Virus record (IMG/VR): IMGVR_UViG_2602041549_000009
Strand: one strand, 5' to 3'
Origin: a virus
Taxonomy: Duplodnaviria; Heunggongvirae; Uroviricota; Caudoviricetes
DNA length: 13,094 bases
The position numbers and the translations under genes are program-made. The notes under the pieces were generated by a model, which ran no database searches, was not told the origin of the DNA, and saw nothing but the letters and a program-made list of their open reading frames with translations. Below are positions 1 through 13,094 of the stretch, one piece after another (position 1 is the stretch's first letter; every line of letters begins with the position of its first letter).

Positions 1-239
1 CCATCATACACTAAATCAGTAAGTTGGCAGCATCACCAGTACGAGCATACGAAATGCTCCCACAGAAGTTCCGGTAACAAATCTGGACGCCCCCAGCGTG
101 GTAGCAACCACACTCATTCAAACCCTTGACTGGCGTCAGCGGAAAGCGCGCTTAATCACAGAGGCAGAAGATGGGATATTTAATGATGTGCTTGAAAGAG
201 TCATTACCCTGATTGGTGGAGAGCATCTGCTTAAGTAAA

Positions 240-262
240 AGGAGGGCTGAGAAGCCCTCAAC
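240..262 (-). terminator. Candidate intrinsic terminator after the 423-aa gene
   Basis: Stem GAGGGCT / AGCCCTC (242-248, 253-259) with a 4-nt loop, about 23 nt past the stop at 282; on the minus strand it is followed by CTTTTACTT. The T-tract is short and interrupted. Confidence 0.4.
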
Positions 263-281
263 GTTACCGGAAATTTCCTTG

Positions 282-1553
282 CTATTCTTTCCAGTCAATC
301 CCATCCAGTAAGCACCCTGCCTCATATTGCCCCACCACCCAGTCAAGGTTACAGGACTCATAGAACGCGAGGCGATTATACTGAGGCTCGTTTTTTACCA
401 GGCCACGAACGGAACCACGCTGCCAGTACAGACACAGATTGGCAAGAGGTGTGATCAATACAGCATTGTCCGGGAAAAATGGAACGGTCACAGCCGGGAG
501 ATTCCCCAGAACAGGATTTTTAATGATTTCCTCGTTAAGCAAAATTTCCTGATTCATCTGCGATGGATCAAGACGGTTTATCAAAGGCCATTGCTTACGG
601 ACCAGCGTATTGTGACTGCATACGGCCACAATGCCTTCCTGCCACTGTTCATCAATCATGGATTGCCAGGCATCCAGAACGAGCGCATCTATCGTATGGT
701 GTGTACCGCGTGTATTACTTTTCGGTGATGAAACAGAAAGGCCGCTGATAACCCTTCCCGCCGCTTCATTTCGAAACTTCTGCAACCAGCCCACGCCGCA
801 ATCATCACGCCCCGGATATGTTCCGGGATCTGATGTATCGGCATAGTGCGTACCGTTAAAACCAATCTGAATCAAATCCAGCCATTTCCGGCGTTCAAAA
901 GCAGCCCGTGCGCTTCCTTCAAGACCGTTTGCGGATGCGTGAGCATCAACATTGTCGTAGTTCAGCGCAAAATCAAAATTAACCTGCTCGCAGCGGTAGC
1001 CCCTTGAAACCAGTGAATGCGCCTGTAGTGGCGAACGGCGCTCGTGAGGTGGCGATGTACGTGCCAACGGCCCCGAAGCGTCTACCAGCACAACCCGACC
1101 TGATATATCCGTAACAGGCACGGGAGTTATTTCAGCAAGGAAATTTGCCTGCCATCCACTGGCAAGCGTTGCACTCTGGCGGGGAACGGGTTCAACTTCT
1201 GACGAATAGCGCGCAGTGTCACCGGAAAAGTGCAAATCCTTCGGATGCTTTCCGGTTATCGACTCGATAGCGCAATTGAAAACCATCTGAGCCTGTTGAT
1301 TTCGTTGTGATGCAACAGAATCAGCAGTGCAATTATAACGCTCAATGCCGTCGTTATTACCCCCACCGCTTGCAGTATGCAGGGTGTGAAGCTCAAGCTC
1401 ACGCTCCAGTTTTTGATATTCATTGTCCAGCGCGCGACGCGTCTCATTGCTTATGCTTGCTGTGTTTGCTTTCAGGCGATTCCGGGACATTAATCCCCTG
1501 AGTCGGCTCACTATATCAGCGCCGTGCAAATGTGGAGTATTCAGACCGCCCAT
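282..1553 (-). CDS. Hypothetical 423-aa protein of unknown function, translationally coupled to the upstream Psu-like gene; candidate satellite hotspot cargo
   Basis: Long minus-strand ORF. I chose the start at 1553 (MGGLNTPHLHG...) because its ATG overlaps the upstream stop as TAATG; the ORF track's 1694 start would overlap the upstream gene by 141 nt. I see no Walker A, HNH, reverse-transcriptase or other motif I can name. Confidence 0.6.
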   Translation of the reverse strand: MGGLNTPHLHGADIVSRLRGLMSRNRLKANTASISNETRRALDNEYQKLERELELHTLHTASGGGNNDGIERYNCTADSVASQRNQQAQMVFNCAIESITGKHPKDLHFSGDTARYSSEVEPVPRQSATLASGWQANFLAEITPVPVTDISGRVVLVDASGPLARTSPPHERRSPLQAHSLVSRGYRCEQVNFDFALNYDNVDAHASANGLEGSARAAFERRKWLDLIQIGFNGTHYADTSDPGTYPGRDDCGVGWLQKFRNEAAGRVISGLSVSSPKSNTRGTHHTIDALVLDAWQSMIDEQWQEGIVAVCSHNTLVRKQWPLINRLDPSQMNQEILLNEEIIKNPVLGNLPAVTVPFFPDNAVLITPLANLCLYWQRGSVRGLVKNEPQYNRLAFYESCNLDWVVGQYEAGCLLDGIDWKE

Positions 1554-2263
1554 TACTGCCACCCCCGGCAGAGTTCTCTGCCCTCCGCAAGGTCGCGCAT
1601 TTTTTCTGGATTCTGTCGCGCCGCGCTCCATTGTACAGGTGAAGGGGCGTTCCTGATTGTGCGGCTTACCGAATCCGGGAGTTTCTCCGGGCAATAACGC
1701 AGCGGGCTGGAGGTGTCGCTTTCGGTATCGTTAATCCGGCCGCGAATCATCCCGGCACTTTCAGCAGCATCTGTCGCTTTCAGTGTTTCGCATATTTTCT
1801 TTTCTGCGTTATACAGCGGCTGGCCAAGCAGCTCACATAAACCACGAATCAATAACAGAGCAGGGGTCAGCTCGTTAATCAGTTCGGGAAGTGCTTTTGC
1901 AAATATCTCTGCCCGCAACTTATTATCAATGCTTTCGTAAGCACAACCAGCCTCTGCCGCGTTATAACGACACTCCAGTAGCCTGATGCGCGCCTCATCA
2001 TGCAGCACCCGCAGACGCTCAAGATTTTCTCGCGCCACACCCGCCTGAATGGATAATTTCGCGGAGGCTTCCGTTTTTACGCCCAGCGCAGACAGGATTG
2101 AGTTCTGCCAGTCACGATCGAGAGATTCCAGCTCCCCTTTCGTCTGTTCGATAGTTGCTTCCAGATTGGTGATTAATGATTCCTGTTCACTGAGTTTTGC
2201 CATGGCTGTATCAAACTGTGCTTTACATACCTGATGTTCGGCGCTTGCCTGAGTTATATCCAT
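1553..2263 (-). CDS. psu: Psu-like (polarity suppression / capsid decoration) protein, P4 family, 236 aa
   Basis: ORF with SD AGGAG 6 nt before the ATG at 2263. Helical, coiled-coil-like composition with stretches (AQFDT near the N-terminus, ALPEL, ATDA) that resemble P4 Psu as I recall it. Lies downstream of an Ogr/Delta gene as in P4. Assignment is from memory, not alignment. Confidence 0.5.
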   Translation of the reverse strand: MDITQASAEHQVCKAQFDTAMAKLSEQESLITNLEATIEQTKGELESLDRDWQNSILSALGVKTEASAKLSIQAGVARENLERLRVLHDEARIRLLECRYNAAEAGCAYESIDNKLRAEIFAKALPELINELTPALLLIRGLCELLGQPLYNAEKKICETLKATDAAESAGMIRGRINDTESDTSSPLRYCPEKLPDSVSRTIRNAPSPVQWSAARQNPEKMRDLAEGRELCRGWQ

Positions 2264-2269
2264 TATTTG

Positions 2270-2380
2270 CTCCTGTAATACATTTTTTTACTTACGCCGA
2301 TTTTTTCCATATTGCGTAATACATTCCAGCCGATATTGTTCTCGTAATACGCTCACAATACTGTTGTATTACGCTTTCTT
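2270..2380. promoter_or_regulatory. Divergent promoter/operator region with repeated CGTAATAC (GTANTAC) sites
   Basis: Intergenic between the Psu-like gene (minus) and the plus-strand RHH-like gene. Copies at 2276-2282, 2316-2322, 2344-2350 and, inverted, 2366-2372; the last two form a perfect inverted repeat CGTAATAC-N15-GTATTACG (2343-2373). Confidence 0.5.
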
Positions 2381-2428
2381 ATATCGCGGGTGTTAAATCC
2401 CGGCATAAACAATCAGGGAGGCAACACG

Positions 2429-2662
2429 ATGAAAAAACAAAAGAAAATGCGATGCGTATTACGCTGTATTCGTATCCCGCACGAAATCGACCATAAAATA
2501 AATCAGATATGTCAGGACAGAGAGATGAACTACTCCCAGTGCGTCAGAATGTTTATCAGTCAGGGAATTAAGGCCGGGGAAACGCAGGAAGAAGACTGCA
2601 ACGGGCGCAATGTAGCGGGGGATGTGTGGGCCTGGGCAAATGACCAGAACCACACGACGTAA
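2429..2662 (+). CDS. Small ribbon-helix-helix-like DNA-binding protein (putative regulator or antitoxin-like), 77 aa
   Basis: Plus-strand ORF with strong SD GGGAGG 7 nt before the ATG at 2429 (MKKQKKMRCVLRCIRIPHEIDHKINQI...). The basic N-terminus followed by an RIPxEIDxKIN segment is RHH/CopG-like by eye. Convergent with the Ogr-like gene. Confidence 0.5.
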   Translation: MKKQKKMRCVLRCIRIPHEIDHKINQICQDREMNYSQCVRMFISQGIKAGETQEEDCNGRNVAGDVWAWANDQNHTT

Positions 2663-2712
2663 TACAGAAATAACGCAGCCGGTCACACTCGCTGGCTGTG
2701 TTATACAAATCA

Positions 2713-2895
2713 CTATGAAGTTTTCGACTTCCTGCGCTTAGTAATGCGCACAAACGACTCAAGCGTACAAAAACAGGCCCCACACTCAATATTATTGCAC
2801 TGGTAATACGTTCTGTAGATGTTTTGTTCGTGTTCTTCCAACGAACGACCACGGGTGCGGGCTGAAGCGCCACAGGCCGGGCAAGGGAAAGACAT
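2713..2895 (-). CDS. Ogr/Delta-family zinc-finger late-gene transcriptional activator, 60 aa
   Basis: Protein MSFPCPACGASARTRGRS...YYQCNNIECGACFCTLESF matches the Ogr/Delta pattern CPxC...YxQCxNxxCxxxFxTxES of P2 Ogr / P4 Delta. SD AGAGGAG 6 nt before the ATG. Confidence 0.85.
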   Translation of the reverse strand: MSFPCPACGASARTRGRSLEEHEQNIYRTYYQCNNIECGACFCTLESFVRITKRRKSKTS

Positions 2896-3160
2896 ATCAC
2901 GCTCCTCTTACTGGTGTGAAATTTAACCTATTATATCTTCTGTCGCCCCCTCTGGCTGTATCAAATAAACCCGCAGCAGTCGCCGCGTATTACGCACGGG
3001 CGCGCCGTTCCCATGCTCACTCGTCACATTCCCCGTATCAGTTCTCTCTTGCCGTAAGAACGGCTCTGGCTGGCGATAAAACTAACCCGGTCGGGGCATT
3101 CCCGTAGCCTTTAGCGTAAATGTAATTTACCCCCTGAAACGCGTGCTGTTCCCCCGTCAC

Positions 3161-3196
3161 CTGCGCACAAAAAACTCACCGTTTTTTGTGCACGCA
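3161..3196. promoter_or_regulatory. Near-perfect ~33-bp palindrome (operator-like)
   Basis: TGCGCACAAAAAAC-tcacc-GTTTTTTGTGCACGCA; the core arms CACAAAAAAC / GTTTTTTGTG are perfectly complementary. The AT-rich stem argues for a protein-binding dyad rather than a terminator. Confidence 0.4.
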
Positions 3197-3257
3197 CGAA
3201 ATCGCCCTCCGGGCGCGCCAGTACTGGGCCGGATGGGCAAAAAGTTACTCTAAAAAA

Positions 3258-3284
3258 TTGTGCAAATTTGTGCACTTTTGTGCA
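3258..3284. repeat. Three direct repeats of TTGTGCA spaced at 10 bp
   Basis: TTGTGCA at 3258-3264, 3268-3274 and 3278-3284, one helical turn apart, consistent with cooperative binding on one DNA face. Confidence 0.45.
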
Positions 3285-3508
3285 GATGAACAATAGCGTC
3301 AAAAAGAGTGCTTTTGAGAGATTTTTTATGGCAACTGCGCCGCGTGTATTACGTTTTTTACCATCCCCGCCGCGCATGTACATACTTCATTTTTCTGCCA
3401 AACAACAGGGCAACTCCCCGTGACTGACAGCCCCAAAAAATCAATGATTGATGTTGCATTTTTGTTAGAGGTCAGGCCAGTTGTTTTGGGGCTCTGCCTC
3501 ATAATCCG

Positions 3509-3827
3509 GTGGGGGGTGCGCAAAGCGGTTACAACGGTTACAACAGTCAAAAATACCACTTAACAACATGATTTTAATGGATATTGTTTGTAACCGCTTT
3601 GCGGTTACACTGCGGTTACAACGGTTACAGGTTTCAAAAAGCACTTTATTATCAATCAATTAAAAACTTAACCTGTAACCGCCTGTAACCTAACAAAACG
3701 GTTACATGTAACCGCGTTGTAACCGCTTTTGTAACTCATCCGACCAGTTATAATATATTGATATATAATACAAAAATAAGTAATTCTAAATTTGTAACCG
3801 TTGTAACCGCTTTGCGCATCCCCCCCC
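3509..3827. repeat. Palindromically organised iteron field: at least 13 copies of GGTTACA / TGTAACC flanked by a ~32-bp inverted repeat with an AT-rich centre; candidate replication origin (ori/crr-like) or recombinase arm-site cluster
   Basis: Forward GGTTACA at 3527, 3536, 3603, 3614, 3623, 3700; reverse TGTAACC at 3589, 3674, 3684, 3708, 3718, 3793, 3802. Outer inverted repeat 3511-3543 versus 3793-3827 (26 bp identical). Inner perfect 12-bp inverted repeat CGGTTACAGGTT (3622-3633) / AACCTGTAACCG (3670-3681) across an AT-rich spacer. Confidence 0.7.
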
Positions 3828-4020
3828 AAACTTTAGCGCGACCCTTTAAAATGTTAATTAAACTCACTTGCTCTGTCTCATTCTCATTAACTCTCTGTTA
3901 TTAAAATGTATCTCGTCATTATTTGACTCTTTCTGGTAATCAGGGGGGGCAAAAAATTGATGGCGGCACCACTGCAATATGGCCACCATTGCATTGCCGT
4001 TACCGTTGGTTCTGGCCAAC

Positions 4021-4050
4021 AAAAAAGGTCAGCGGGAAACTGACCTCTTT
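4021..4050 (-). terminator. Rho-independent terminator ending the primase-recombinase operon
   Basis: Stem GGTCAG / CTGACC (4027-4032, 4040-4045) with a 7-nt loop; on the minus strand it is followed by TTTTTT (4021-4026), about 25 nt past the recombinase stop at 4076. Confidence 0.7.
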
Positions 4051-4075
4051 TGCTGTGAATGTAGCGTTCTGCGGG

Positions 4076-5086
4076 TTACTCTGCTGGCTCTTTTTCTTCG
4101 GTGATCACTATGTTGGCTACCGGGTTAAATCTCATGGCATCTGCCAGGTAATCCGGTGCAAAATGCGCGTAAGTCATCGTCTGCTGAATAGTGCTGTGTC
4201 CTAGTATTTTCTGCAATGTGATGATGTTTCCACCATTAATCATAAAGTGAGTGGCAAAGGTATGCCGTAAAACATGCACAGACTGACCGACGGGTAAATC
4301 AGGCCGCACAGTCCTTATTGCACTTCTGACAGTTGCATAATTAGGTTTCATTAATCTTCCGGTCGCCTTTACTTTGACCAGTGATTCAAGATCTTTAGCG
4401 ATTGGAACGACCCGCCTTGAGCCGTTCTTTGTCTTCATAAAAATAACCTTTCCGCCAATTATGTGCTCACCTTTAATATTGGCAATCTCACCCCAGCGCC
4501 CACCTGTAGCCAGACACAACAATACAGCCTTAAGATTATCGCCAGATAAAAGCGCGGTTAGCCTGGAAATATCATCATGTGCAAGATAAGCCATTTCTGG
4601 CTGATTAATGTTTAACTTACGTATCTCGCGAAACGGGTTATTACCCGCAAACTCTTCAGCATCAATCAGCTTTTCAAAGAAACCGCTCATCATGGCACAA
4701 TAGCGATTTACTGTTGACTGTTTAATTCCACGATTCATTAATTTAAGTCGATATCTGATAATATTTTTCCGGGTTAAATGATCGCTTCTGTTTATCCCAA
4801 GTTCGCGCATATCACAAAGAACAGCTTCAATTCTTACCCGCGTCATCGCTCCATAACGATGATTCTTGCCATGATACGCCCACCATAATTCCAGAAGATC
4901 GCTTAACGCTTTACGTTCAATGGGCTTTTCGACCCACTCTTTGTTGTGGTAGTGCATCAGAACATGGCGTTCATACGCCACTGCTTCACCACGAGTATCA
5001 AATCGCCGCCTGAATCTTTTTCCTTCTGCTCCTGCAGGCCGCACGTCCACAGCAAACTTACCGTTAACCAACTTCTTTATCGTCAT
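4076..5086 (-). CDS. Tyrosine-type site-specific recombinase / integrase, about 336 aa
   Basis: C-terminal catalytic region HVLRHTFATH ... LGHSTIQQTMTYAHF (HxxR and catalytic Tyr) is typical of the phage-integrase family. The start at 5086 (MTIKKLVNGKF...) overlaps the primase stop as ATGA. Confidence 0.85.
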   Translation of the reverse strand: MTIKKLVNGKFAVDVRPAGAEGKRFRRRFDTRGEAVAYERHVLMHYHNKEWVEKPIERKALSDLLELWWAYHGKNHRYGAMTRVRIEAVLCDMRELGINRSDHLTRKNIIRYRLKLMNRGIKQSTVNRYCAMMSGFFEKLIDAEEFAGNNPFREIRKLNINQPEMAYLAHDDISRLTALLSGDNLKAVLLCLATGGRWGEIANIKGEHIIGGKVIFMKTKNGSRRVVPIAKDLESLVKVKATGRLMKPNYATVRSAIRTVRPDLPVGQSVHVLRHTFATHFMINGGNIITLQKILGHSTIQQTMTYAHFAPDYLADAMRFNPVANIVITEEKEPAE

Positions 5087-7758
5087 TTTTCGGTGACCTC
5101 CTTGTAACTGAATATCCGGCATTTCAGCACTTCCGGCTCTCTGGCTTCGGCTACTCCTTTTCCGGCGTTTGCCTGTCTGGACACCTCACTACGAATGGTT
5201 TTACGGCCTGTCAACGGTCGGGAACGCCCAGCTCCGAGCAACTCAATCATTTCGCGATCGGTTCGGATCTCCACGCGGTGAATGGCGGCAGCCTGTGCCA
5301 GTTGCGGAATACTGATAGCAATCCCTTCGCGGCATCCCTTGCCGTAATGGTTTACACCGTATTTTGTTATGCCGTCCAGGAAGTCGAACGCCTCCCAGAA
5401 CTCCATCACTTCTGGCAAGTCAGCCGCCGCCGCTTTAACCTGCGCCGTTGCCATTTGTTCCAGTTCCAGACATGTGGCATCAAGCCATTCATCCGGGATA
5501 TCGATAACGCATTTCAGCGCCCTGACCAGCGCGATAAGTTGCGCGTGATTTTTGGCAATACGGGGATGGCGAATATTTTCGCATCCGCAAAGGCGTTCCG
5601 TTTCAGCGGGCGATACCTCCAGGAACGTTTGCATAATCGCCCGTTCCTGACTTACCGCCCGGTGAATAAACCCCGATACCTTCTCGACGGGGTAGAGTTC
5701 CAGCCGTCTCGCCGCCAGTCGGGTATCAGGTGAATGGCGTTTTTTATCGGTGTATATGCGTATCAGGCGCTCAATAATTGCCGGCGAGGCATTTACCCGC
5801 GCATTCTGCGCAATCACGATAGCGCCCTTAAAATCCGGGTCATAGGTGTTGTTATTGTTGGCCTTAACCCCACGAACACCGATACCGCCACCGTTATAGA
5901 GGCTTTTCAGGTTATCGAAGTCAAACGCACCTCTTTTTTGCGCATTGTCTCCCCGGTCTGCTTCAATCAGAACAACAGGCAATCCGGCGACCTGTCCAAA
6001 GGTGCGCTTCCAGCCCGCCTCTGATCCTTTGGTTGGATCAACTCCTTCGTAGTTGTCACGACCGCACAGCCGCCAGCAAAAATCAATCAATGTTGATTTG
6101 CCCGTTCCGGGCTCTCCGGTGACTTCAAGGAAAGGGAAGGATTCTTCTTTATCCCGGATTTGTTCGCTGAACAGGGAGCCCAACCAGAAAGCCAGGGTAA
6201 TAATTCCCTTTTCACCAAAAGCCAGCCAGAGATCTTCCACCCAGGACGCTGTAAATTCATCCGGTTTTTTGTAGTTAATCTGTAATGTGGGGTTTTCGCT
6301 TAATGGTTTTGCGTTTATGCCATCAATTTCAAAATAATCCTCGTCATTGATTTCATAAGTTTTTCCCTTGTAAACAGCAATATCATTAAACAGCCATGCC
6401 CCAATCGCCTTGTTGTATCCGATAAAATCCTGACCAATAACCTCTTTTATTGCGGGAAGGTCATTTTTTATTAATGCGTCAAGCTGCGTAGTCGTTCCGG
6501 TATAAATACCGCCTTTTGCCACGTGTAACAGGCGTTTTTTAAATTCAGATGAGGATGTTAATTGTCCTGATGTAAAGGTGTTTTTCACCGTAGCACCATC
6601 CGGGAACGTAACACGGAAGTAATACCATGCTTCATCCGTGTCATTATTTCGAATGTAATAAAGCGGCGCTGGGTTACAGTTTGCGATTTCTTTTACTGCA
6701 CCAGATTCCTTAAGTGCAATTTTGCGCGCTTCATCCTCATCAACATTTCGCTCATTAATGACACGCTCAACAGCCTTCATATGGCGCTCAATGTCCAGCT
6801 TGAACCAGAAAACACGGTTATCAAAAGTAAAATGAAATTCCTTCCGCTCACGAAAGGAAAACATTATTAGTGCCTTATCTCTTGGAGATTTCGCCAGCAA
6901 TAAATCACCGTAATAACGGTATCTTTTCACATCATGGCCACGCAGCTTTCCGGCGATGTGTAAATCATTCCAGTCGCGTTTATTGTTGTTTTTACCTGGC
7001 AACGCCGCTGCCGTTCTCCAGCCGTCTTCGGCGCTGCGTTCTGCATGTTTTTTCGCGTAACGCTCACCTGCACGCCCGTTATCCAGCGCCCACACGATAA
7101 CCGGACGGGGATTATCCCCGCACAGCTTCGCCAGCTCTTCCAGTGCCTTATCAGGGTAGTTCACGGCAGACATGACAGAAACGGCCGCAATGCCATTCTG
7201 GTTAAGGCTGATGGCATCAAAGATACCCTCACAAATCCAGATTTCTTTGGCCTTGCTTAAATCTGCTCCCGGATAAGCCCACCACAACCCCTTGTAGCTG
7301 CCGGAAAAATTCGCCTTCCGTTCGAAGCGTTCCGGTCGGTCTATGATGCGCTCCCACCACACGTCGTCAGCCAGCGTAAAACGCACAGTAGCGGCCTGTT
7401 CGCCGCTTTCCTTGTCTTTGTATCGCTCCTGGGTAAATACCCCCTTCAGTGGCTCTGTAGCAATATTGCGTGCCTCCAGGAGATAAGCTGCCGCCGCTGC
7501 GTATGGTTCATCTTTCGTACTGATATAGCGATCTGACCATGATGAAAACACATCCGGGTAAAGTTCTTTAGTCAGCAGGTCTGTACCGCATTTATTTTCA
7601 CGCCCGCAGTGTACGATGTACGGCCTTTCAAGGCTGGTAAACAACTCTTTCTTTCCACATTGCGGACAAACACCATACCGGAGGTAGTTATTTTCTTCTT
7701 TGAAGTTGTAATCACGGATAAGACGGTTAATAATCTCTTTTCTGATGTCAGATTTCAT
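5083..7758 (-). CDS. P4 alpha-like primase-helicase (zinc-binding N-terminus, TOPRIM-like motif, C-terminal P-loop NTPase), about 891 aa
   Basis: N-terminal CPQCGKK...HCGRENKCG zinc-ribbon-like motif; WICEGIFDAISL (EGxxD TOPRIM signature); Walker A GEPGTGKST and Walker-B-like VVLIEADRGD. Start placed at 7758 (MKSDIRK...) because SD GGAG sits 8 nt upstream; the ORF track's 7782 start lies inside the upstream hairpin. Confidence 0.85.
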   Translation of the reverse strand: MKSDIRKEIINRLIRDYNFKEENNYLRYGVCPQCGKKELFTSLERPYIVHCGRENKCGTDLLTKELYPDVFSSWSDRYISTKDEPYAAAAAYLLEARNIATEPLKGVFTQERYKDKESGEQAATVRFTLADDVWWERIIDRPERFERKANFSGSYKGLWWAYPGADLSKAKEIWICEGIFDAISLNQNGIAAVSVMSAVNYPDKALEELAKLCGDNPRPVIVWALDNGRAGERYAKKHAERSAEDGWRTAAALPGKNNNKRDWNDLHIAGKLRGHDVKRYRYYGDLLLAKSPRDKALIMFSFRERKEFHFTFDNRVFWFKLDIERHMKAVERVINERNVDEDEARKIALKESGAVKEIANCNPAPLYYIRNNDTDEAWYYFRVTFPDGATVKNTFTSGQLTSSSEFKKRLLHVAKGGIYTGTTTQLDALIKNDLPAIKEVIGQDFIGYNKAIGAWLFNDIAVYKGKTYEINDEDYFEIDGINAKPLSENPTLQINYKKPDEFTASWVEDLWLAFGEKGIITLAFWLGSLFSEQIRDKEESFPFLEVTGEPGTGKSTLIDFCWRLCGRDNYEGVDPTKGSEAGWKRTFGQVAGLPVVLIEADRGDNAQKRGAFDFDNLKSLYNGGGIGVRGVKANNNNTYDPDFKGAIVIAQNARVNASPAIIERLIRIYTDKKRHSPDTRLAARRLELYPVEKVSGFIHRAVSQERAIMQTFLEVSPAETERLCGCENIRHPRIAKNHAQLIALVRALKCVIDIPDEWLDATCLELEQMATAQVKAAAADLPEVMEFWEAFDFLDGITKYGVNHYGKGCREGIAISIPQLAQAAAIHRVEIRTDREMIELLGAGRSRPLTGRKTIRSEVSRQANAGKGVAEAREPEVLKCRIFSYKEVTEK

Positions 7759-7771
7759 ATATAAAACTCCA

Positions 7772-7800
7772 CCCCACTGCACCTTTTGCAGTGGGGTTTT
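7772..7800. other. GC-rich hairpin between the 101-aa gene and the primase start (bidirectional terminator or attenuator candidate)
   Basis: CCCCACTGCA (7772-7781) pairs with TGCAGTGGGG (7787-7796) around a 5-nt loop. On the plus strand it is followed by TTTT (7797-7800); on the minus strand it is followed by GGAG-TTTT and then the primase ATG. Confidence 0.45.
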
Positions 7801-7801
7801 A

Positions 7802-8107
7802 TTAATTACTCGTTACTTCTTGTTTCTTGGTAATCCCTGCGGCTTCAGCTTTGTGCCATGAAAAAATACCGCCAGAAAGATGCATACCAGATTTTATTGT
7901 TTCTAATTCCCGATAAATAATATTAAACAGAGATACAATTGCTTTGTTTGTGATTTCTGAAGATGCTCCGCAATCCCTCTCACCAAACATGATGGATATA
8001 AGATCGATGAGGTTAATTACATCTGCGAGATCTTCTTTTGCACTCTCTGTAAAAAATCCAATGTATTCTTTATCTAAAATATCCGCGTAATTCTGATTTT
8101 CAGACAT
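7802..8107 (-). CDS. Hypothetical 101-aa protein, AT-rich compositional outlier
   Basis: ORF with SD GGGGGAG 5 nt before the ATG at 8107. The gene is visibly more AT-rich than its neighbours. No recognisable motif. Confidence 0.6.
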   Translation of the reverse strand: MSENQNYADILDKEYIGFFTESAKEDLADVINLIDLISIMFGERDCGASSEITNKAIVSLFNIIYRELETIKSGMHLSGGIFSWHKAEAAGITKKQEVTSN

Positions 8108-8175
8108 AAAAACTCCCCCGACCCGTTAAGGTCGAAATATAAATTTAATTCAGTTATCAGTGGATAATTCGGGAA

Positions 8176-8394
8176 TCAGGCGGAAAGCTGCGTCACCTTC
8201 AACGCTCTGAAATGTGTCATTCCCAGCTCTTCCAGCCCTTCGGCTGCGCGGCGTATGGCTTCGCCCGGTCCCGTTCCGTATACCGTTGCATGTGCATGTT
8301 TGGTTAACCCGCGCTTATTAACGGCATAACCCAACACAAAGAAACGTTTTTCACCACTGCCATTATTTTTACGGGATGCTGAACGGGTTTTCAT
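8176..8394 (-). CDS. Hypothetical small protein, 72 aa (early-region small protein)
   Basis: Its ATG overlaps the upstream stop as ATGA at 8391-8394. Glycine-rich basic protein MKTRSASRKNNGSGEKRFFVLGYAVNKRG...; may belong to the small Icd-like/Ash-like families seen in P4-like prophages, but I cannot confirm. Confidence 0.55.
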   Translation of the reverse strand: MKTRSASRKNNGSGEKRFFVLGYAVNKRGLTKHAHATVYGTGPGEAIRRAAEGLEELGMTHFRALKVTQLSA

Positions 8395-8579
8395 TTCTTC
8401 ACCTTTACCACTGATGCTGTGAGCTCTTCTTCTGGCAATTGATATTTCGGCGCAATTTCTTCCGTATACCTGATAGCGTCCCTTGCCGCTTTTCCTTTTG
8501 ATTTATATTTACGTATCGTGTGGAAGTTTTCTTCCTCTCCTGTTACCACATTACGCAATTTAATATGAATCTCGTACAT
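8391..8579 (-). CDS. Hypothetical small protein, 62 aa
   Basis: Strong SD GGAGG 7 nt before the internal ATG at 8579 (MYEIHIKLRN...). The ORF track's 8609 start lacks an RBS and overlaps the upstream gene. Confidence 0.55.
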   Translation of the reverse strand: MYEIHIKLRNVVTGEEENFHTIRKYKSKGKAARDAIRYTEEIAPKYQLPEEELTASVVKVKK

Positions 8580-8581
8580 CG

Positions 8582-8764
8582 TTACCCCTCCATGATTTTT
8601 ACTGCGCATTTGTGGGTTAATCGCCCCTGTTTGTCATTGCGGGAATATGCCATACGACAGGCATCACGCCATGCATCGTCATAAGTCGGGTATTCCCGGG
8701 CATGAATCATCTGGCGAACGTCGCCGTTCTGGCAGTTAATCAGGGTGATAAGGAGCTTAAACAT
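8582..8764 (-). CDS. Hypothetical small protein, 60 aa
   Basis: SD GGGAGG 6 nt before the ATG at 8764 (MFKLLITLINCQNGD...). Overlaps the upstream gene's end by 8 nt; its stop at 8582-8584 abuts the next start at 8579. Confidence 0.5.
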   Translation of the reverse strand: MFKLLITLINCQNGDVRQMIHAREYPTYDDAWRDACRMAYSRNDKQGRLTHKCAVKIMEG

Positions 8765-8930
8765 GGCACGCCTCCCGGACACGGATACGGGCGACAAAGA
8801 CCAGGCGGGATGCAGGAAGCAGGGCGCGCGCTTCGCGCTCACTGGCAGCGGTAACGGTATGAAGGCGGATATTTTTACCGTGGCACTGCATAAAGCGCCA
8901 GATAAAATCAGGGCGTGTTGATATAGCCAT
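8757..8930 (-). CDS. Hypothetical small protein, 57 aa
   Basis: SD GGGAG 8 nt before the ATG at 8930 (MAISTRPDFIWRFMQCHGKNIRLH...). The longer 175-aa version in the ORF track has a low-complexity hydrophobic N-terminal extension with no RBS. Confidence 0.5.
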   Translation of the reverse strand: MAISTRPDFIWRFMQCHGKNIRLHTVTAASEREARALLPASRLVFVARIRVREACHV

Positions 8931-8949
8931 ATGAAAGGCTCCCAATTCA

Positions 8950-8980
8950 AGTTTAAGAAGCCTCACTACAACGCTGTCAA
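8950..8980 (-). promoter_or_regulatory. Candidate sigma70 promoter for the small-gene operon
   Basis: On the minus strand: perfect -35 TTGACA (plus 8975-8980), 18-19 bp spacer, -10-like TTAAAC/TAAACT (plus 8950-8956), about 20 nt upstream of the SD for the 8930 start. Confidence 0.35.
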
Positions 8981-9252
8981 ACGTGGTGGCGAGACGTAAC
9001 AGGGTTGACAGACTGGCAAATTGGGAAACCAGCGAGCATAAAGCTCCCCCATTACGCCCCGCCATAATACGGGAAAGGGTGGTATTACGGGCACAAAAAA
9101 ACCGCATTACGGAATACAAGCGGCTACCCGCCAATTTATTCAGGCTGTCAAACCCGGCACCTGTTTTATGAGGTGCGGGCAAACGATACGCCATGACAAA
9201 AAAGCGAGTCAAGCAATATTGCAAATTATTTTGGCGCGATTGCGCTGAGTGA

Positions 9253-9281
9253 TTGATTTTTAAGAGTAAAAAAGCCATAAT
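9253..9281 (+). promoter_or_regulatory. Candidate sigma70 promoter on the plus strand
   Basis: -35 TTGATT (9253-9258), exactly 17-bp spacer, -10 CATAAT (9276-9281). Confidence 0.45.
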
Positions 9282-9287
9282 CATTTC

Positions 9288-9378
9288 TGCCTATTATTTC
9301 TTATTGTTGGTTTCAGGTGCACTAAATGCACATCCTTGACTGGTTGGCTCGCTAGCTTTAGCGAGCTTCTTTTTTTTG
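9288..9378 (+). ncRNA. Candidate ~90-nt small RNA (promoter-to-terminator unit), antisense to the minus-strand early transcript
   Basis: Bounded by the plus promoter at 9253-9281 and the plus terminator at 9347-9378. Contains an internal hairpin GTGCA-ctaaa-TGCAC (9317-9331). No ATG-initiated ORF with an RBS in the interval. Confidence 0.35.
9347..9378 (+). terminator. Strong rho-independent terminator, plus strand
   Basis: Perfect 8-bp stem GCTCGCTA / TAGCGAGC (9347-9354, 9359-9366) with loop GCTT, followed by TTCTTTTTTTT (9367-9377). The minus-strand reading has no T-tract after the stem, so it is plus-specific. Confidence 0.7.
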
Positions 9379-9560
9379 CTCTGCTGCCAGTACCCAGCCT
9401 CCTTCCCTCACATGTAGTAATGTGCCCGCTCCAGTCAGCTGGATAATGCTGTATTCCCGGACATCCGGTTATGATGTTTAAAGCGTTTGTTTGTTTATGC
9501 CACGTGGAGAATATCCCCATGTCGCCATTAATTGTATTTATCATAACAGTTTACCCAATC

Positions 9561-9577
9561 CGGTTAATGTAACCGGA
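9561..9577. promoter_or_regulatory. Perfect 17-bp palindrome CCGGTTA-atg-TAACCGG containing the iteron core
   Basis: Inverted repeat with a 3-bp centre; each half carries the GGTTA/TAACC core of the iterons at 3509-3827. Lies between alpA and the small-gene operon. Confidence 0.45.
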
Positions 9578-9839
9578 ATAACTCAATTTCATACACTGTA
9601 AATAAATGCTGATTTTGAACTTAGCTCCTTGGAATATATTTCTTACGTGTGACGTACAGGTGAAAATATCCCTCTGATAGTCCATTTTCTTTTATTGGGT
9701 CACATCTGTTTACTCCGGTTCCCTTAACAAGGGTAGAGCATCTTTTAAACCATGAATGCATCTTTGGTTAAGTGATGTTTCTTATTGAATGAAATGTTTA
9801 GGCGCATATCGCGCCATGCTGACTATAAAGTGAAAATAA

Positions 9840-10061
9840 TTAAGCCTGAAAACGTTGTTGTTTTCTTTCTTCTATCCAGTCGATAATTTCCTCTTCAACC
9901 CATGCAACCGCACGAGGGCCTATTTTTATTGGTTTGGGGAATATATCAGATTTTATATCTTCGTAAATTCGAGCTCTCGATCTCCCTGTGATTTCAATGA
10001 CTCTGGGGAGTCTTATTAATTTTTGAATCCGCCTTTCGCTGGTCTGTGAGTATGCTGACAT
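9840..10061 (-). CDS. alpA: AlpA-family phage regulatory protein (helix-turn-helix; excisionase/transcription regulator), 73 aa
   Basis: Protein ...IRLPRVIEITGRSRARIYEDIKSDIFPKPIKIGPRAVAWVEEEIIDWI matches the AlpA/HTH_17 pattern (hydrophobic-TG-S/R-R-x-x-IY ... FP-K-P-x-K-x-G-x-R-A-x-x-W). SD AGGAGG 5 nt before the ATG. Confidence 0.85.
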   Translation of the reverse strand: MSAYSQTSERRIQKLIRLPRVIEITGRSRARIYEDIKSDIFPKPIKIGPRAVAWVEEEIIDWIEERKQQRFQA

Positions 10062-10416
10062 ATTGGCCTCCTGTATATGCTGAACACTTTACGTTAGCTC
10101 ACAGTGGGAGCATGTAAGATCTCGCGGTCGTCTGCGGGACGAGAAAAATCATAAACAACGAAAAGCGGATTTGTAAATCTGGTCGATTTTCAGACGGGGT
10201 TGACATGGACAGTTAGATTTGTTCCATGTGTGAAATACACATTTTAGGACCACTTTAATCCGCTTTAAACCGCCTGGAAGCGACAAAGAATAACAAGTTA
10301 GTGCCAGAAAGGTTTGCTGACTTACCCTTTCAGGCACCAGGAAAGCCCGTTCTGGGGGATGTAATGCTTGCGAACGCTGGAATAGTGGTTTCTGAAAACA
10401 AAAAAAGAATTGAAAA

Positions 10417-10432
10417 TGTGATACATATCACA
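10417..10432. promoter_or_regulatory. Consensus CRP-type site TGTGA-N6-TCACA
   Basis: AAAATGTGAtacataTCACAAAAT: perfect TGTGA/TCACA half-sites with a 6-bp spacer and an A/T-rich flank, in the AT-rich integrase-alpA intergenic region. Confidence 0.4.
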
Positions 10433-10589
10433 AAATGATATCGATAAAATAGTTTGATTTTTTTGTTTTTATTAAAAGCACTGGTTAATTGTGAAAAATT
10501 AATTATAAATCAAATGGATATATCTGTTTTTTTAGGGTAAAAATCACTAGGTGCTTTTAGTGAGGTCTTATTCTATTGATTTTAAAAGA

Positions 10590-10624
10590 TAAAAAAATCG
10601 GCGTGTCCACATATTGTCCACGCC
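10590..10624 (-). terminator. Candidate intrinsic terminator after the integrase gene
   Basis: Stem GGCGTG / CACGCC (10600-10605, 10619-10624) with a 13-nt loop; on the minus strand it is followed by a T7 tract (rc of 10590-10599), about 48 nt past the integrase stop. Confidence 0.5.
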
Positions 10625-10671
10625 TTGAGCTTAATTCAGCCGCTTGGGGTAGTTTAGTTTGTTGAGTTGAT

Positions 10672-11934
10672 TCAGTCTGTTTCGTTAGCCCATTTAAAAT
10701 CATAGGGGGCAATATATGCCGTCTTGCAGGTGTCGAGATAATCAGCCCACCATTGCAACATTCGGCGGCGTTCCTGCATATGTTCAGCTCTGTGAATGTA
10801 TGCAGCCCGGACACTGCCTCTTTCCCTGTGACTCATCTGAAGCTCAACGGCTTCTCTTGTCCACCTGCCTGACTCTGTCAGCGCCGAACAGGCCATAGCT
10901 CTGAATCCGTGGCCACAAATATCTTTTTTTGTGTCGTATCCCATGTGGCGTAATGCCTTGTTAATGGTGTTTTCGCTCATTGGTTTTATCTGGTAATGGT
11001 CGCCGGGGAAAATAAACAATTCATCACCGGATATATTTCTTATATCGTCAAGAAGCTGCATGGCCTGAGTGGGCAAAGGGATGGCGTGAGGGGTTCCCAT
11101 TTTCGTTCCACGATATGAATATTTTACGCCTTCTATTTTTTCGCGTTCTGCTGGTATTACCCACATTGATTTATCAAAGTCAATTTCATTCCAACGAGCA
11201 AAACGCAATTCACTTGAGCGAATAAAAATTAATAAATTTAATTTTAGTGCAAATTGCGTTAATAACCGTCCATTCATCTTGTGGTGGTAATCATTTATTT
11301 TGCCAAGTAATTCAGGTAATCGCTCAAGGGGAAGAGCGGGGCGATGTTTGGTTTTATTAGTTTCGATTGCACCGTTCAGTTCCTGCGCTGGATTGTATTT
11401 AATCATTCCATTCTGTACAGCGTAGCGCATAATGGCGTTCATTCGCTGCTTGTTACGTGATGCTGTCTCAAGCACTCCTTTATCTTCCATTTTGCGTAAA
11501 GGAATCAGTAGATCCATGGTTGTGATCTCGTTAATTGGCCTTTTACCAAGAATGGGGAAGATGTGGTTTTCCAGGTCTTTTAAGACTTTTTGCGCGTGTA
11601 ATTCGCTCCAGCCCTTTTTCCGGCTGTGCCATTCTCTGGCAACGTCTTCAAAAAGCACTATTTGAGGTTTTGGTGTGTGCAGTGGGTCAATGCCTTTAGC
11701 CAGGCTCGCCAGATATTCATCACGAGCGTTCCTTGCCTGTGCAAGTGTTACGGCAGGATAAATGCCTAAAGCTCGGGTCGTTTCTTTACCGTTGATAACC
11801 TTGCGAAAGCGCCAGTATTTTGAGCCGTTGGGGTGAACATAGAGATACAGGCCTTTCCCGTCACGAAGTTTTTTAATTTTGTTGTTGTCCTTATCTGGTT
11901 TGGCGTTACGTACAGCTACATCAGTCAGTTTCAT
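10672..11934 (-). CDS. int: P4-type tyrosine integrase (DUF4102-like N-terminal arm-binding domain plus catalytic domain), about 421 aa
   Basis: N-terminus MKLTDVAVRNAKP...GKGLYLYVHPNGSKYWRFR and C-terminus HGFRAMA...RAAYIHRAEHMQERRRMLQWWADYLD are characteristic of P4/CP4-57-type integrases. SD GGAGG 9 nt before the ATG at 11934; the track's 11976 start has no RBS. Confidence 0.85.
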   Translation of the reverse strand: MKLTDVAVRNAKPDKDNNKIKKLRDGKGLYLYVHPNGSKYWRFRKVINGKETTRALGIYPAVTLAQARNARDEYLASLAKGIDPLHTPKPQIVLFEDVAREWHSRKKGWSELHAQKVLKDLENHIFPILGKRPINEITTMDLLIPLRKMEDKGVLETASRNKQRMNAIMRYAVQNGMIKYNPAQELNGAIETNKTKHRPALPLERLPELLGKINDYHHKMNGRLLTQFALKLNLLIFIRSSELRFARWNEIDFDKSMWVIPAEREKIEGVKYSYRGTKMGTPHAIPLPTQAMQLLDDIRNISGDELFIFPGDHYQIKPMSENTINKALRHMGYDTKKDICGHGFRAMACSALTESGRWTREAVELQMSHRERGSVRAAYIHRAEHMQERRRMLQWWADYLDTCKTAYIAPYDFKWANETD

Positions 11935-12200
11935 TATGTTGATCCTCCAGACGGGTACAAATAAAAATCGAACCAAGCGTACCCGTTTTTATACCCATTT
12001 TAATATGGGCTTCAGGCAAATTTAACGAGAGATAACGAGACAATGGAAGAGATTTAACTCATTGAAAAACAATGGGTAATGGTTTTTTCTGAGAGATTGC
12101 GAGAAGTTGCGATGGTGTCCCCTGCAGACATCTACTTGAGGCAGCAGGGGATTGATTGGAATGGTATTTTTTAGATGTGAGAAATATTTTACCCGCTATT

Positions 12201-12401
12201 TTACCCATTGGCGCGGCTTAAGAGCTTATTTTTGAATTCACAATGGTCGCGATATAACCATCTTGCGCGTCCGTGGATAACTTTGGCTTTTGGCAGGTCG
12301 CCGGACTTAATCCGGTCATAGATGAAGGTTTTACCGAAGCCAGTATCGGCCATGATGAATTTCAAATCAACCAGGGAATCAGGCTGTAGTTCGTGTTGCA
12401 T
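12201..12401 (-). CDS. Second AlpA-like helix-turn-helix regulator / excisionase-like protein, 66 aa
   Basis: ...FIMADTGFGKTFIYDRIKSGDLPKAKVIHGRARWL fits the AlpA/HTH_17 pattern less closely than the 9840-10061 gene. SD GGAG upstream of the ATG. Lies directly upstream of the integrase in the same orientation (xis-int-like). Confidence 0.6.
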   Translation of the reverse strand: MQHELQPDSLVDLKFIMADTGFGKTFIYDRIKSGDLPKAKVIHGRARWLYRDHCEFKNKLLSRANG

Positions 12402-12440
12402 GAGTGCTATCTCCGAATAGGGAATCGAACCTGCAAATCA

Positions 12441-12468
12441 GGCAATAAAAAACCGCCATCAGGCGGCT
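12441..12468 (-). terminator. Rho-independent terminator after the 12510-12809 gene
   Basis: Stem CCGCC / GGCGG (12453-12457, 12462-12466) with loop ATCA; on the minus strand it is followed by TTTTTATTG. Confidence 0.55.
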
Positions 12469-12509
12469 TGGTGTTCTTTCAGTTCTTCAATTCGAATATT
12501 GGTTACGTC

Positions 12510-12809
12510 TTATTCGATGCGCACTCCTGGTATTTCGCCTTTTGATATTGCTAAGTCATAAATTTGCGCTGCACTATACCCATCTCGCATCCATGAATCT
12601 AAGGCGCGAACAGCCTCGCTACGCTTTTTATCTTCTCTCTCATTTTTGATATCAACGAGGACATCAACGCAATTAAGGCAAATGTGGATTTTGTCCTTAC
12701 ATTCGATCATGGCGGCTTTGCCATGATTTCCTCCACACAGTGAGCATAAATCTTCAGGGTCTGGCTGGTATTTCTGTAACGTTAGAGGGTTGAATGTTGA
12801 ACAGGCCAT
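12510..12809 (-). CDS. Hypothetical cysteine-rich (possible zinc-ribbon) protein, about 99 aa
   Basis: Cys cluster CSLCGG...C...HICLNC. Start is ambiguous among three in-frame ATGs (12821, 12815, 12809); GGAG precedes the third (MACSTFNPL...). Confidence 0.5.
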   Translation of the reverse strand: MACSTFNPLTLQKYQPDPEDLCSLCGGNHGKAAMIECKDKIHICLNCVDVLVDIKNEREDKKRSEAVRALDSWMRDGYSAAQIYDLAISKGEIPGVRIE

Positions 12810-12850
12810 AATCATCTCCATAAAACAAAACTCGCCGTAGCGAGTTCAGA

Positions 12851-12880
12851 TAAAAGAAATCCCCGCGAGTGCGAGGATTG
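12851..12880 (-). terminator. Candidate intrinsic terminator after the 12881-13094 gene
   Basis: On the minus-strand RNA: 9-bp stem AAUCCUCGC / GCGGGGAUU (one G-U pair) with loop ACUC, followed by UCUUUUAU. Confidence 0.45.
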
Positions 12881-13094
12881 TTATTCATTGCCGATATTAA
12901 CCTTTATCGCGTACACCTTTACCGGTTTATCACCGAAGTGGGGATGTGTGATTGTCTTTATTTCATATCCGTCATACGGAACATCAATTCTACGGCTGGA
13001 ATCGTCGCGCTTCGGATATCCCTTTGTGATAATCAGGCGGTCATATTCCCGGAACATGGATTTGCCCCTATATTTCCAGACATCTGTTATCACT
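12881..13094 (-). CDS. Hypothetical protein, probably 5'-truncated by the window edge
   Basis: ORF runs to the window edge with no ATG (the track's start is a GTG at the boundary). No recognisable motif. Confidence 0.4.
   Translation of the reverse strand, partial: VITDVWKYRGKSMFREYDRLIITKGYPKRDDSSRRIDVPYDGYEIKTITHPHFGDKPVKVYAIKVNIGNE

Follow-up and report, generated by a model that had tools for sequence, protein, structure and literature searches.

A P2-family integrase encoded as an exchangeable cassette behind the primase of a P4-like satellite, with a possible action on helper attachment sites

In this study, we analysed a stretch of DNA of 13,094 nucleotides (nt) from the IMG/VR record IMGVR_UViG_2602041549_000009 (the window), on which all relevant genes lie on the (-) strand. 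We assign it to a P4-like satellite of P2-like (Peduoviridae) phages, carried in Escherichia coli at tRNA-Arg. Besides the P4-type integrase at its end (the outer integrase), the satellite encodes a second tyrosine recombinase directly behind its primase-helicase. This inner recombinase is identified here as a P2-family phage integrase (Int), and its gene occupies a slot in which at least five alleles (A1-A5) were found between otherwise near-identical satellites. An initial annotation of the window had pointed to two recombinases in one co-oriented element, one of them linked to replication, as unusual, and we agree; both genes are intact. Tentatively, we propose that the inner Int acts in trans on the attachment (att) sites of matching helper phages.

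The inner Int has the three-domain architecture of arm-binding, core-binding and catalytic domains. Pfam places Int_N at residues 58-158 and Phage_integrase at residues 168-310, residues 46-324 align to the crystal structure of P2 Int (5C6K, E=1.2e-76), and residues 1-55 align to the arm-binding N-domains of phage Ints. At the level of amino acids (aa), the Int of phage P88 is 76-77% identical to allele A1, the allele of the window. Higher identities were found for the Int of L007 (88%), a P2-like prophage located next to chpS in E. coli JNEC-KY204 with the usual int-C-cox context, and for prophage-end Ints in IMG/VR (89%). The NCBIfam models XerC, XerD and XerA gave the inner Int 70-92 bits against cut-offs of 220-335. 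We classify the protein as a heterobivalent P2-family phage integrase and not as a resolvase of the Xer/Cre type. Inactivating substitutions in its catalytic residues, a possibility raised in the initial annotation, were not found: R197, K218, H271, R274, H297 and Y306 are all present, and the same six are kept in all five alleles. The catalytic set is intact, and recombination by the protein is predicted. The ratio of non-synonymous to synonymous substitution rates (dN/dS) is 0.06 between two A2 satellites (21 synonymous and five non-synonymous differences) and 0.10 between A1 and its closest prophage Int, which indicates that the inner int gene is maintained by selection. Its surroundings differ from those of its phage homologues, which have C/cox: the inner int gene is without a C/cox switch neighbourhood, does not lie at a prophage end and is found inside the element, 3' of the primase gene.

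The primase and int genes are joined by an ATGA overlap, as described before (Table 1). A Shine-Dalgarno sequence, AAGGAGG, lies inside the 3' end of the primase gene. An in-frame ATG exists at 5122, and both the homology to phage Ints and the RefSeq annotation begin at 5086. The primase gene starts with ATG, and a GTG at 7782 is also open. The earlier view that the recombinase gene ends the operon, right behind the primase gene and in front of a strong terminator, was borne out: a hairpin with a T-run closes the unit. The strong hairpin in front of the primase gene may be a regulated terminator within the early operon. The same arrangement was found at 99.4-99.5% identity in seven complete E. 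coli genomes and occupies two distinct places in the chromosome, and therefore an assembly artefact, which had been considered for this locus, is ruled out. Whether the coupling is conserved in related islands has a divided answer. Adjacency of primase and Int is general (see below); only the allele of the window has the ATGA overlap itself, and other alleles have a 2-nt (TAA-NN-ATG) or a 15-nt spacer. One locus with the second allele is annotated with an 11-nt overlap of primase and Int.

Distribution was sampled in 5426 complete E. coli genomes and in IMG/VR contigs. The primase was found in 90 of the 5426 genomes, at 96 places on chromosomes and none on plasmids, a plasmid count that does not speak to a transient plasmid state. 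In all 15 related satellite loci inspected (among them L001, L003, L005, L006, L008, L009, L010, L014, L133 and L015-L019), an intact Int lies directly behind the primase. L010 keeps this adjacency though its primase gene is only 64% identical at the nucleotide level, and the open reading frame (ORF) is intact and its ribosome-binding context conserved in all loci, the deeply diverged L010 included. Among 80 IMG/VR contigs with primase relatives, Int follows the primase only in the satellite clade (primase identity at least 89%). About 28 P2-like phage contigs, with primases 46-52% identical, have their Int 4.6-7.8 kb upstream on the opposite strand, which is the canonical P2 layout. We regard the inner Int, on this comparative evidence, as part of the conserved satellite core, in the form of an exchangeable cassette.

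The exchange itself is sharply bounded. Between satellites, BLAST breakpoints lie at 4303/4304 and 5097, with DNA similarity lost over about 4304-5096, and in a column alignment identity is back below about 4150. The satellite backbones are 89-98% identical, and the alleles in the slot are only 41-56% identical to each other. Alleles A1-A4 were compared with phage Ints, and each has its own phage counterpart. A1, present in the window, is closest to the Ints of the L007 prophage and of IMG/VR prophage ends (88-89%), with P88 at 76-77%. A2, present in L005, L006 and L009, is 81% identical to the Ints of Chuche, Xuanwuvirus P884B11 and Citrobacter phage Shae_phiSM. A3, in L010, reaches 83% with Salmonella phages SEN4/SEN5 and Enterobacter phage phiT5282H, and A4, in L014 and L133, 88% with many IMG/VR prophage-end Ints and a UTI89-type prophage in E. 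coli. A5 is carried by L019. A1-type sequence at 99% identity or more occurs in seven genomes and A2-type sequence at 95% or more in 33 genomes. By domain, identity to the phage counterpart is 78-91% in the core-binding, 82-96% in the catalytic and 60-76% in the N-terminal arm-binding part. In P2-like Ints, the core-binding domain sets integration and core specificity (PMC3448106). A satellite-specific C-terminal tail of the type FNPVANxxxxxEKEPAE is common to A1, A2, A4 and A5, and the tail of A3 is phage-like. All alleles have their 5' junction at the same place, the primase stop, and the 3' breakpoint lies in a part of int whose DNA sequence is conserved in about 3000 E. coli genomes. The capsid protein of the satellite is only 35-39% identical to phage capsids, and therefore the Int alleles were acquired far later than the other phage-like genes. 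The N-terminus of A4 starts with MSIRKMDDGRWLLDIRP, resembling the A2 start MPIRKMHDGRWLLDIRP, and then turns into the sequence of its phage counterpart; this shared start suggests that satellite alleles have recombined with each other close to the 5' junction.

Next to its own int gene, a P2-like phage carries the site on which Int works, an attP in which two arm repeat pairs flank a core. In phage attP regions, the arm repeats begin within or just past the 3' end of int; they are of the TGTCCA type with an 11-base-pair (bp) period in P88, L007, Chuche and L101 and of the GTCTACA type in SEN4, and they agree with the published consensus tgTGGaCa. The homology between satellite and phage int genes stops at about residue 321-328, just short of the phage arm site. 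BLAST comparison of the att regions of P88, L007 and SEN4 with the 2 kb downstream of the inner int gene returned only chance 8-11-mers. The P88/L007 core CACCTTCGGGTGGC is absent from the window at up to three mismatches (the core of the chpS-proximal prophage site, of the P88-like or JNEC-KY204 type, is GCCACCTTCGGGTGGC), and the P88/L007 arm pattern matches the window once, with 0.69 matches expected. Satellites integrated between hpt and gcd (hpt-gcd type) gave no match to an arm-pair pattern with which one arm pair or more is returned from every one of four phage attP regions. In the 250 bp between int and the iterons, column alignment revealed no allele-specific differences. Judged by these patterns, the satellite is without a cognate attP: no core is flanked by arm repeats, and no site changes together with the allele.

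Two other places in the window were considered as sites for the inner Int. A 36-nt inverted repeat (3508-3543 and 3792-3827) encloses the iteron field, and GTTACA iterons are found at the same position in the divergent L010. The initial annotation had envisaged a nested element using this region as its site, an idea that we reject, as iteron fields and Int alleles are combined independently of each other. The iteron field of the window is also that of L005, yet the Int is A1 in the window and A2 in L005; the A2 Int is in turn common to L005 and L009, whose iteron fields are only 79% and whose primases are 89% identical. Because the field varies with the primase and independently of the Int allele, we interpret the iterons as an origin and not as a recombination site, and they probably represent the replication origin served by the primase. 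The other place is an arm-like direct repeat pair of the P2 type, TGTCCACATATTGTCCAC, at 10604-10621, which has an 11-bp period and one mismatch to two copies of tgTGGaCa; per window, shuffled sequences hold 0.08-0.23 such pairs. All modules of the tRNA-Arg type contain the pair, in identical form in A1 and A4 satellites (the L010 version is TGTCCACAAGTTGACTAC, and its conservation there is not above the 72% background), and it is absent from the hpt-gcd-type satellites that carry the same Int alleles. As a site for the inner Int it was set aside, as it coincides with the terminator hairpin of the outer int gene and shows no variation with the Int allele.

Given the terminal place of its gene in the early operon, with the CI/C4 immunity RNA upstream, the inner Int would be made only upon activation and replication of the satellite. 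Because no cognate attP was recognised on the satellite, Int would then act in trans on matching helper att sites, either attL and attR of a resident prophage or attP and attB of an infecting helper. In the version that we prefer, the satellite would supply Int for the excision of a helper prophage, together with the Cox protein of the helper. Excision would potentially raise the helper genome copy number and the late-gene dosage available to the satellite, and the Int allele would be a determinant of helper range. In classical P2 genetics, P2-like prophages are limited by Int after derepression. An action in trans is suggested because Int is intact, its specificity part tracks P2-like phages, it is the last gene of an operon below an immunity RNA and a cognate site is not recognisable. 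From these sequence relationships, we consider an even chance to be a suitable estimate for the general proposal that the inner Int acts on helper att sites, whether helping or blocking. That it does so on cognate helper sites, preferably aiding excision, is our leading reading, though it falls somewhat short of even. The most far-reaching form, in which a helper-specific Int controls helper recombination by excising or locking a P2-like prophage and the alleles are swapped helper-range determinants, is possible and the more speculative proposal.

Several observations weigh against an excision aid in trans. P4 itself is not known to need excision of its helper. As regards co-residence of a satellite allele with a cognate prophage, the satellite genomes listed mostly have one matching place, in counts that are confounded by second satellites, cross-allele matches and clonal strains. 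The arm-binding N-domain is the part of Int most diverged from the phage proteins (60-76%), and a satellite-specific sequence stands in place of the phage C-terminal tail; either change could alter or abolish an action on phage att sites. Furthermore, the arm-like pair at 10604-10621 would leave room for a role in cis in satellites of the tRNA-Arg type. As for the direction of the effect on the helper, both aid and block would fit, and the activity itself is a prediction.

The changes in the N-domain and tail lead directly to an alternative in which the satellite Int is a poison or competitor that binds helper att sites or co-multimerises with helper Int, thereby blocking excision or integration and favouring satellite packaging. 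All evidence for a target in trans applies to it as well, the satellite-specific tail in A1, A2, A4 and A5 and the strongly diverged N-domain fit it about as well as they fit an excision role, and interference with the helper is a typical strategy of satellites (PMC10085698). We nevertheless consider a poison unlikely, given that the catalytic residues are all kept in five alleles and that A3 has a phage-like tail. The foremost competitor, though itself improbable, is a second integration module, in which the inner Int would integrate the satellite at the attB of P2-like phages through an unrecognised attP and thus widen the choice of sites. A complete protein of the integrase type with a phage-like core-binding domain in each allele would be expected from such a module, and the P2-type arm-like pair of the tRNA-Arg-type satellites might be part of its site. 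However, a second arm and a cognate core for the inner Int were not found, and the Int allele changes while the remaining element is constant. In each inspected locus with a visible boundary, the satellite ends with its outer integrase, either at tRNA-Arg or in the hpt-gcd interval, and a junction beside the inner int gene occurs in none.

Alternatively, the cassette might be a passenger without a selected function, picked up repeatedly from helpers via the conserved 3' int segment and spread by flanking homology. Phage and satellite share a cell, and the position of the 3' breakpoint in a segment conserved in about 3000 E. coli genomes is what such a process would leave behind. A passenger is difficult to reconcile with an intact ORF and conserved ribosome-binding context in all loci including L010, with a dN/dS of 0.06 within satellites, and with a constant 5' junction at the primase stop and a conserved satellite-specific tail; of the three alternatives discussed so far, all of them unlikely, we place it last. 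The suggestion of the initial annotation that the recombinase is a resolvase for replication products was not supported. Int would in this case act on a site within or close to the neighbouring origin and separate satellite multimers there, which agrees with a gene that ends the replication unit and lies beside the iteron field. Yet it belongs to the P2 family by architecture, with the arm-binding domain of integrative recombinases, all Xer models scored below their cut-offs, Int allele and iteron field assort independently, and no plasmid copy was found in the 5426 E. coli genomes. In addition, a resolvase would have no use in tracking phage Int types. We therefore regard this role as very improbable. 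Action of the inner Int in trans on helper att sites, preferably towards excision, is still the explanation that we favour.

The assignment of the element is based on an island beside tRNA-Arg/yfdC in E. coli PEC240, which is 98.5% identical to the window over 38-12127; therefore, the window is taken to represent a P4-like satellite integrated at argW. In the direction of transcription, the outer int gene is followed by AlpA, the isrK RNA, the C4 RNA, an Icd-like ORF and small ORFs, and then by the hairpin at 7771-7797, the primase gene, the inner int gene, its terminator, the iterons, the Ogr/Delta-like gene, the 236-aa ORF and the capsid gene. The traits shared with P4-like elements are the P4-type integrase and AlpA at the element end at a tRNA, the CI/C4-type RNA upstream of the replication genes and the Ogr/Delta-type activator. 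From its gene content, mobilisation by a P2-like helper is predicted. The C4 and isrK RNAs both lie within an ORF annotated as Icd-like, upstream of the primase and int genes and in the same orientation. No match to Psu (PF07455) was found among the ORFs scanned; Sid, which is without a public profile, was not searched for. The 236-aa protein was considered as a scaffold of the gpO type, which was rejected since similarity to gpO was not found. Probably, the element belongs to a capsid-encoding type of P4-like satellite that is likely missed by standard P4 markers. An AbrB/MazE-type antitoxin and a PemK/MazF-type toxin form a pair at the capsid-side end of L001, L003, L005, L009, L014 and L133, outside the window, and this pair occurs in both integration contexts.

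The primase matched phrog_1139 ('DNA primase') from end to end (E=1e-298) and the Pfam family Toprim_2 (E=6.5e-13). A match to DUF5906, which holds the Walker-A motif, was below the cut-off (E=0.005). The alpha-type primase profile PF03288 had no match in this protein, whose Pfam matches were limited to Toprim families and a weak one to DUF5906. Primases 46-52% identical to it occur in P2-like phages, namely in L011 and L012, which are E. coli prophages with annotated tail and head genes, and in L020-L048 from IMG/VR. In these phages, the primase of the same family apparently replaces the P2 gpA-type replication protein, and no gpA-type protein is annotated in the stretches examined. The replication module of the satellite probably derives from this phage lineage.

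Table 1. Positions of the features of the window (numbering from its first nucleotide).
Feature	Position	Strand	Details
P2-family major capsid gene	282..1553	-	35-39% identity to any phage capsid; longer N-terminus
236-aa protein	1553..2263	-	without Pfam or PHROG family; precedes capsid gene
Ogr/Delta-like zinc-finger gene (late-gene activator type)	2713..2895	-	Pfam Ogr_Delta E=3.3e-11
Iteron field	3508..3827	.	over 12 copies of (C)GGTTACA, in both orientations, around AT-rich centre 3740-3790
Intrinsic terminator closing the primase-Int unit	4020..4047	-	hairpin AGGTCAG-TTTCCCG-CTGACCT and T-run, -25.2 kcal/mol
Inner P2-family tyrosine integrase, allele A1	4076..5086	-	336 aa; Pfam Int_N and Phage_integrase
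Allelic cassette	4150..5096	-	arm-binding, core-binding and most of catalytic domain; replaced between otherwise near-identical satellites
ATGA overlap	5083..5086	-	primase stop TGA (5085-5083) and Int ATG (5086-5084); sequence ...GAA AAA TGA
Primase-helicase gene	5083..7758	-	891 aa; N-terminal zinc finger, Toprim domain, Walker-A GEPGTGKS (motifs read from translation)
Strong hairpin	7771..7797	-	11-bp stem, -21.3 kcal/mol; 13 nt 5' of primase ATG, between 101-aa ORF and primase
C4 antisense RNA (clan includes P4 CI-type immunity RNA)	8982..9069	-	Rfam RF01695, 70.5 bits (gathering score 45)
isrK-family small RNA	9095..9176	-	just upstream of C4; Rfam RF01394, 52.3 bits (gathering score 50)
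AlpA-family regulator/excisionase of the outer integrase module	9840..10061	-	Pfam Phage_AlpA E=5.5e-17
Terminator hairpin and T-run of outer int	10601..10625	.	contains P2-type arm-like direct repeat pair TGTCCACATATTGTCCAC
Outer P4-type integrase	10672..11934	-	420 aa; defines element end at tRNA-Arg; Pfam Arm-DNA-bind_3, Phage_int_M and Phage_integrase
Right att junction	12113..12127	-	last 15 nt of tRNA-Arg; PEC240 homology ends there

For its own integration at tRNA-Arg, the element relies on the outer P4-type integrase. This integrase lies 5.6 kb upstream of the inner int gene and adjoins tRNA-Arg in PEC240 and TOE17; its description as a distinct, co-oriented P4-type integrase with its own terminator agrees with the Pfam architecture and with the hairpin and T-run in Table 1. 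The initial annotation had also suggested a composite of two elements, and this is true of the outer module and not of the inner Int, which belongs to the conserved core. The core (38-9424) is joined either to a module of the tRNA-Arg type, which consists of the 420-aa P4-type Int and AlpA, or to one of the hpt-gcd type, with a 399-aa integrase, a 350-aa hypothetical protein and a helix-turn-helix (HTH) gene (9425-12127 compared with L001, L005 and L014). Allele A1 was found with both outer modules. No complete tRNA was found in the window. The region past the 15-nt tRNA-Arg remnant (12128-13094) is a different neighbouring element, in which a 66-aa ORF (12201-12401) is AlpA/HTH_17-like and two other small ORFs have no family assignment; this suggests tandem islands at argW in the source genome.

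The interplay of satellites and helpers is known to target helper repression, late transcription, capsid size and packaging. In the literature searched, we found no description of a satellite that controls helper integration or excision via a copy of a helper-type Int. If the proposed action in trans is true, it would provide the first example of a satellite that takes command of the integration/excision step of its helper. It would explain how P2-like prophages whose excision is limited by Int supply can be used, the Int allele would be a marker of helper adaptation readable from sequence, and a set of naturally re-targeted P2-type integrases would be added to those available. Even if this inference is wrong, a multi-allelic cassette on a near-constant backbone still wants an explanation. 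Moreover, the element represents a poorly described type of satellite, in which a non-alpha primase and a P2-family capsid gene of its own accompany P4-like regulation.

Among known systems, the Ints of P2-like phages (P2, P88, Chuche/P884B11, SEN4, UTI89-type) are the closest, with the same family, architecture and R-K-H-R-H-Y set and an identity of 77-89% over residues 1 to about 321-328. In contrast to them, the satellite Int is without C/cox neighbour, prophage-end position or attP, its tail is replaced and its gene is coupled to a primase gene; moreover, the satellite that harbours it integrates by a different integrase. Cre/loxP of P1, XerCD at cer/dif and ResD of F are likewise tyrosine recombinases encoded beside replication functions. 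They are without an arm-binding domain and act at a simple site near the gene, whereas the architecture found here is of the integrase type and no site co-varies with the allele. With P4 and P4-like elements, the satellite has in common the P4-type integrase and AlpA, the C4/CI-type RNA, the Icd-like gene, the Ogr/Delta-like activator, an iteron origin together with a primase-helicase, and a tRNA as the place of integration in the chromosome. It differs from P4 in its primase family (Toprim_2/phrog_1139, as opposed to PF03288, the P4 alpha profile in PMC8628076), in its own divergent P2-family capsid gene and its extra P2-type Int, and Psu was not found. Surveys of P4-like elements handle additional integrases only as a problem of delimitation (PMC8628076, PMC10085698), and an extra P2-type Int is not described in them. 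A helper-type or second integrase in a satellite was not found described elsewhere in the literature searched. The EPIP satellites of Mycolicibacterium were reported to induce a helper prophage (PMC12822802). Host and elements are unrelated to those studied here and a helper-type integrase is not reported there, yet they provide a precedent for satellite infection that leads to induction or excision of a helper prophage. In the PLE of Vibrio cholerae, the ICP1 protein PexA is the recombination directionality factor. Site-specific recombination is thus common to satellite and helper in both systems. In PLE, the integrase of the satellite borrows a helper protein and excises the satellite, whereas the satellite described here carries a copy of a helper-type Int whose presumed substrate is the helper's own DNA.

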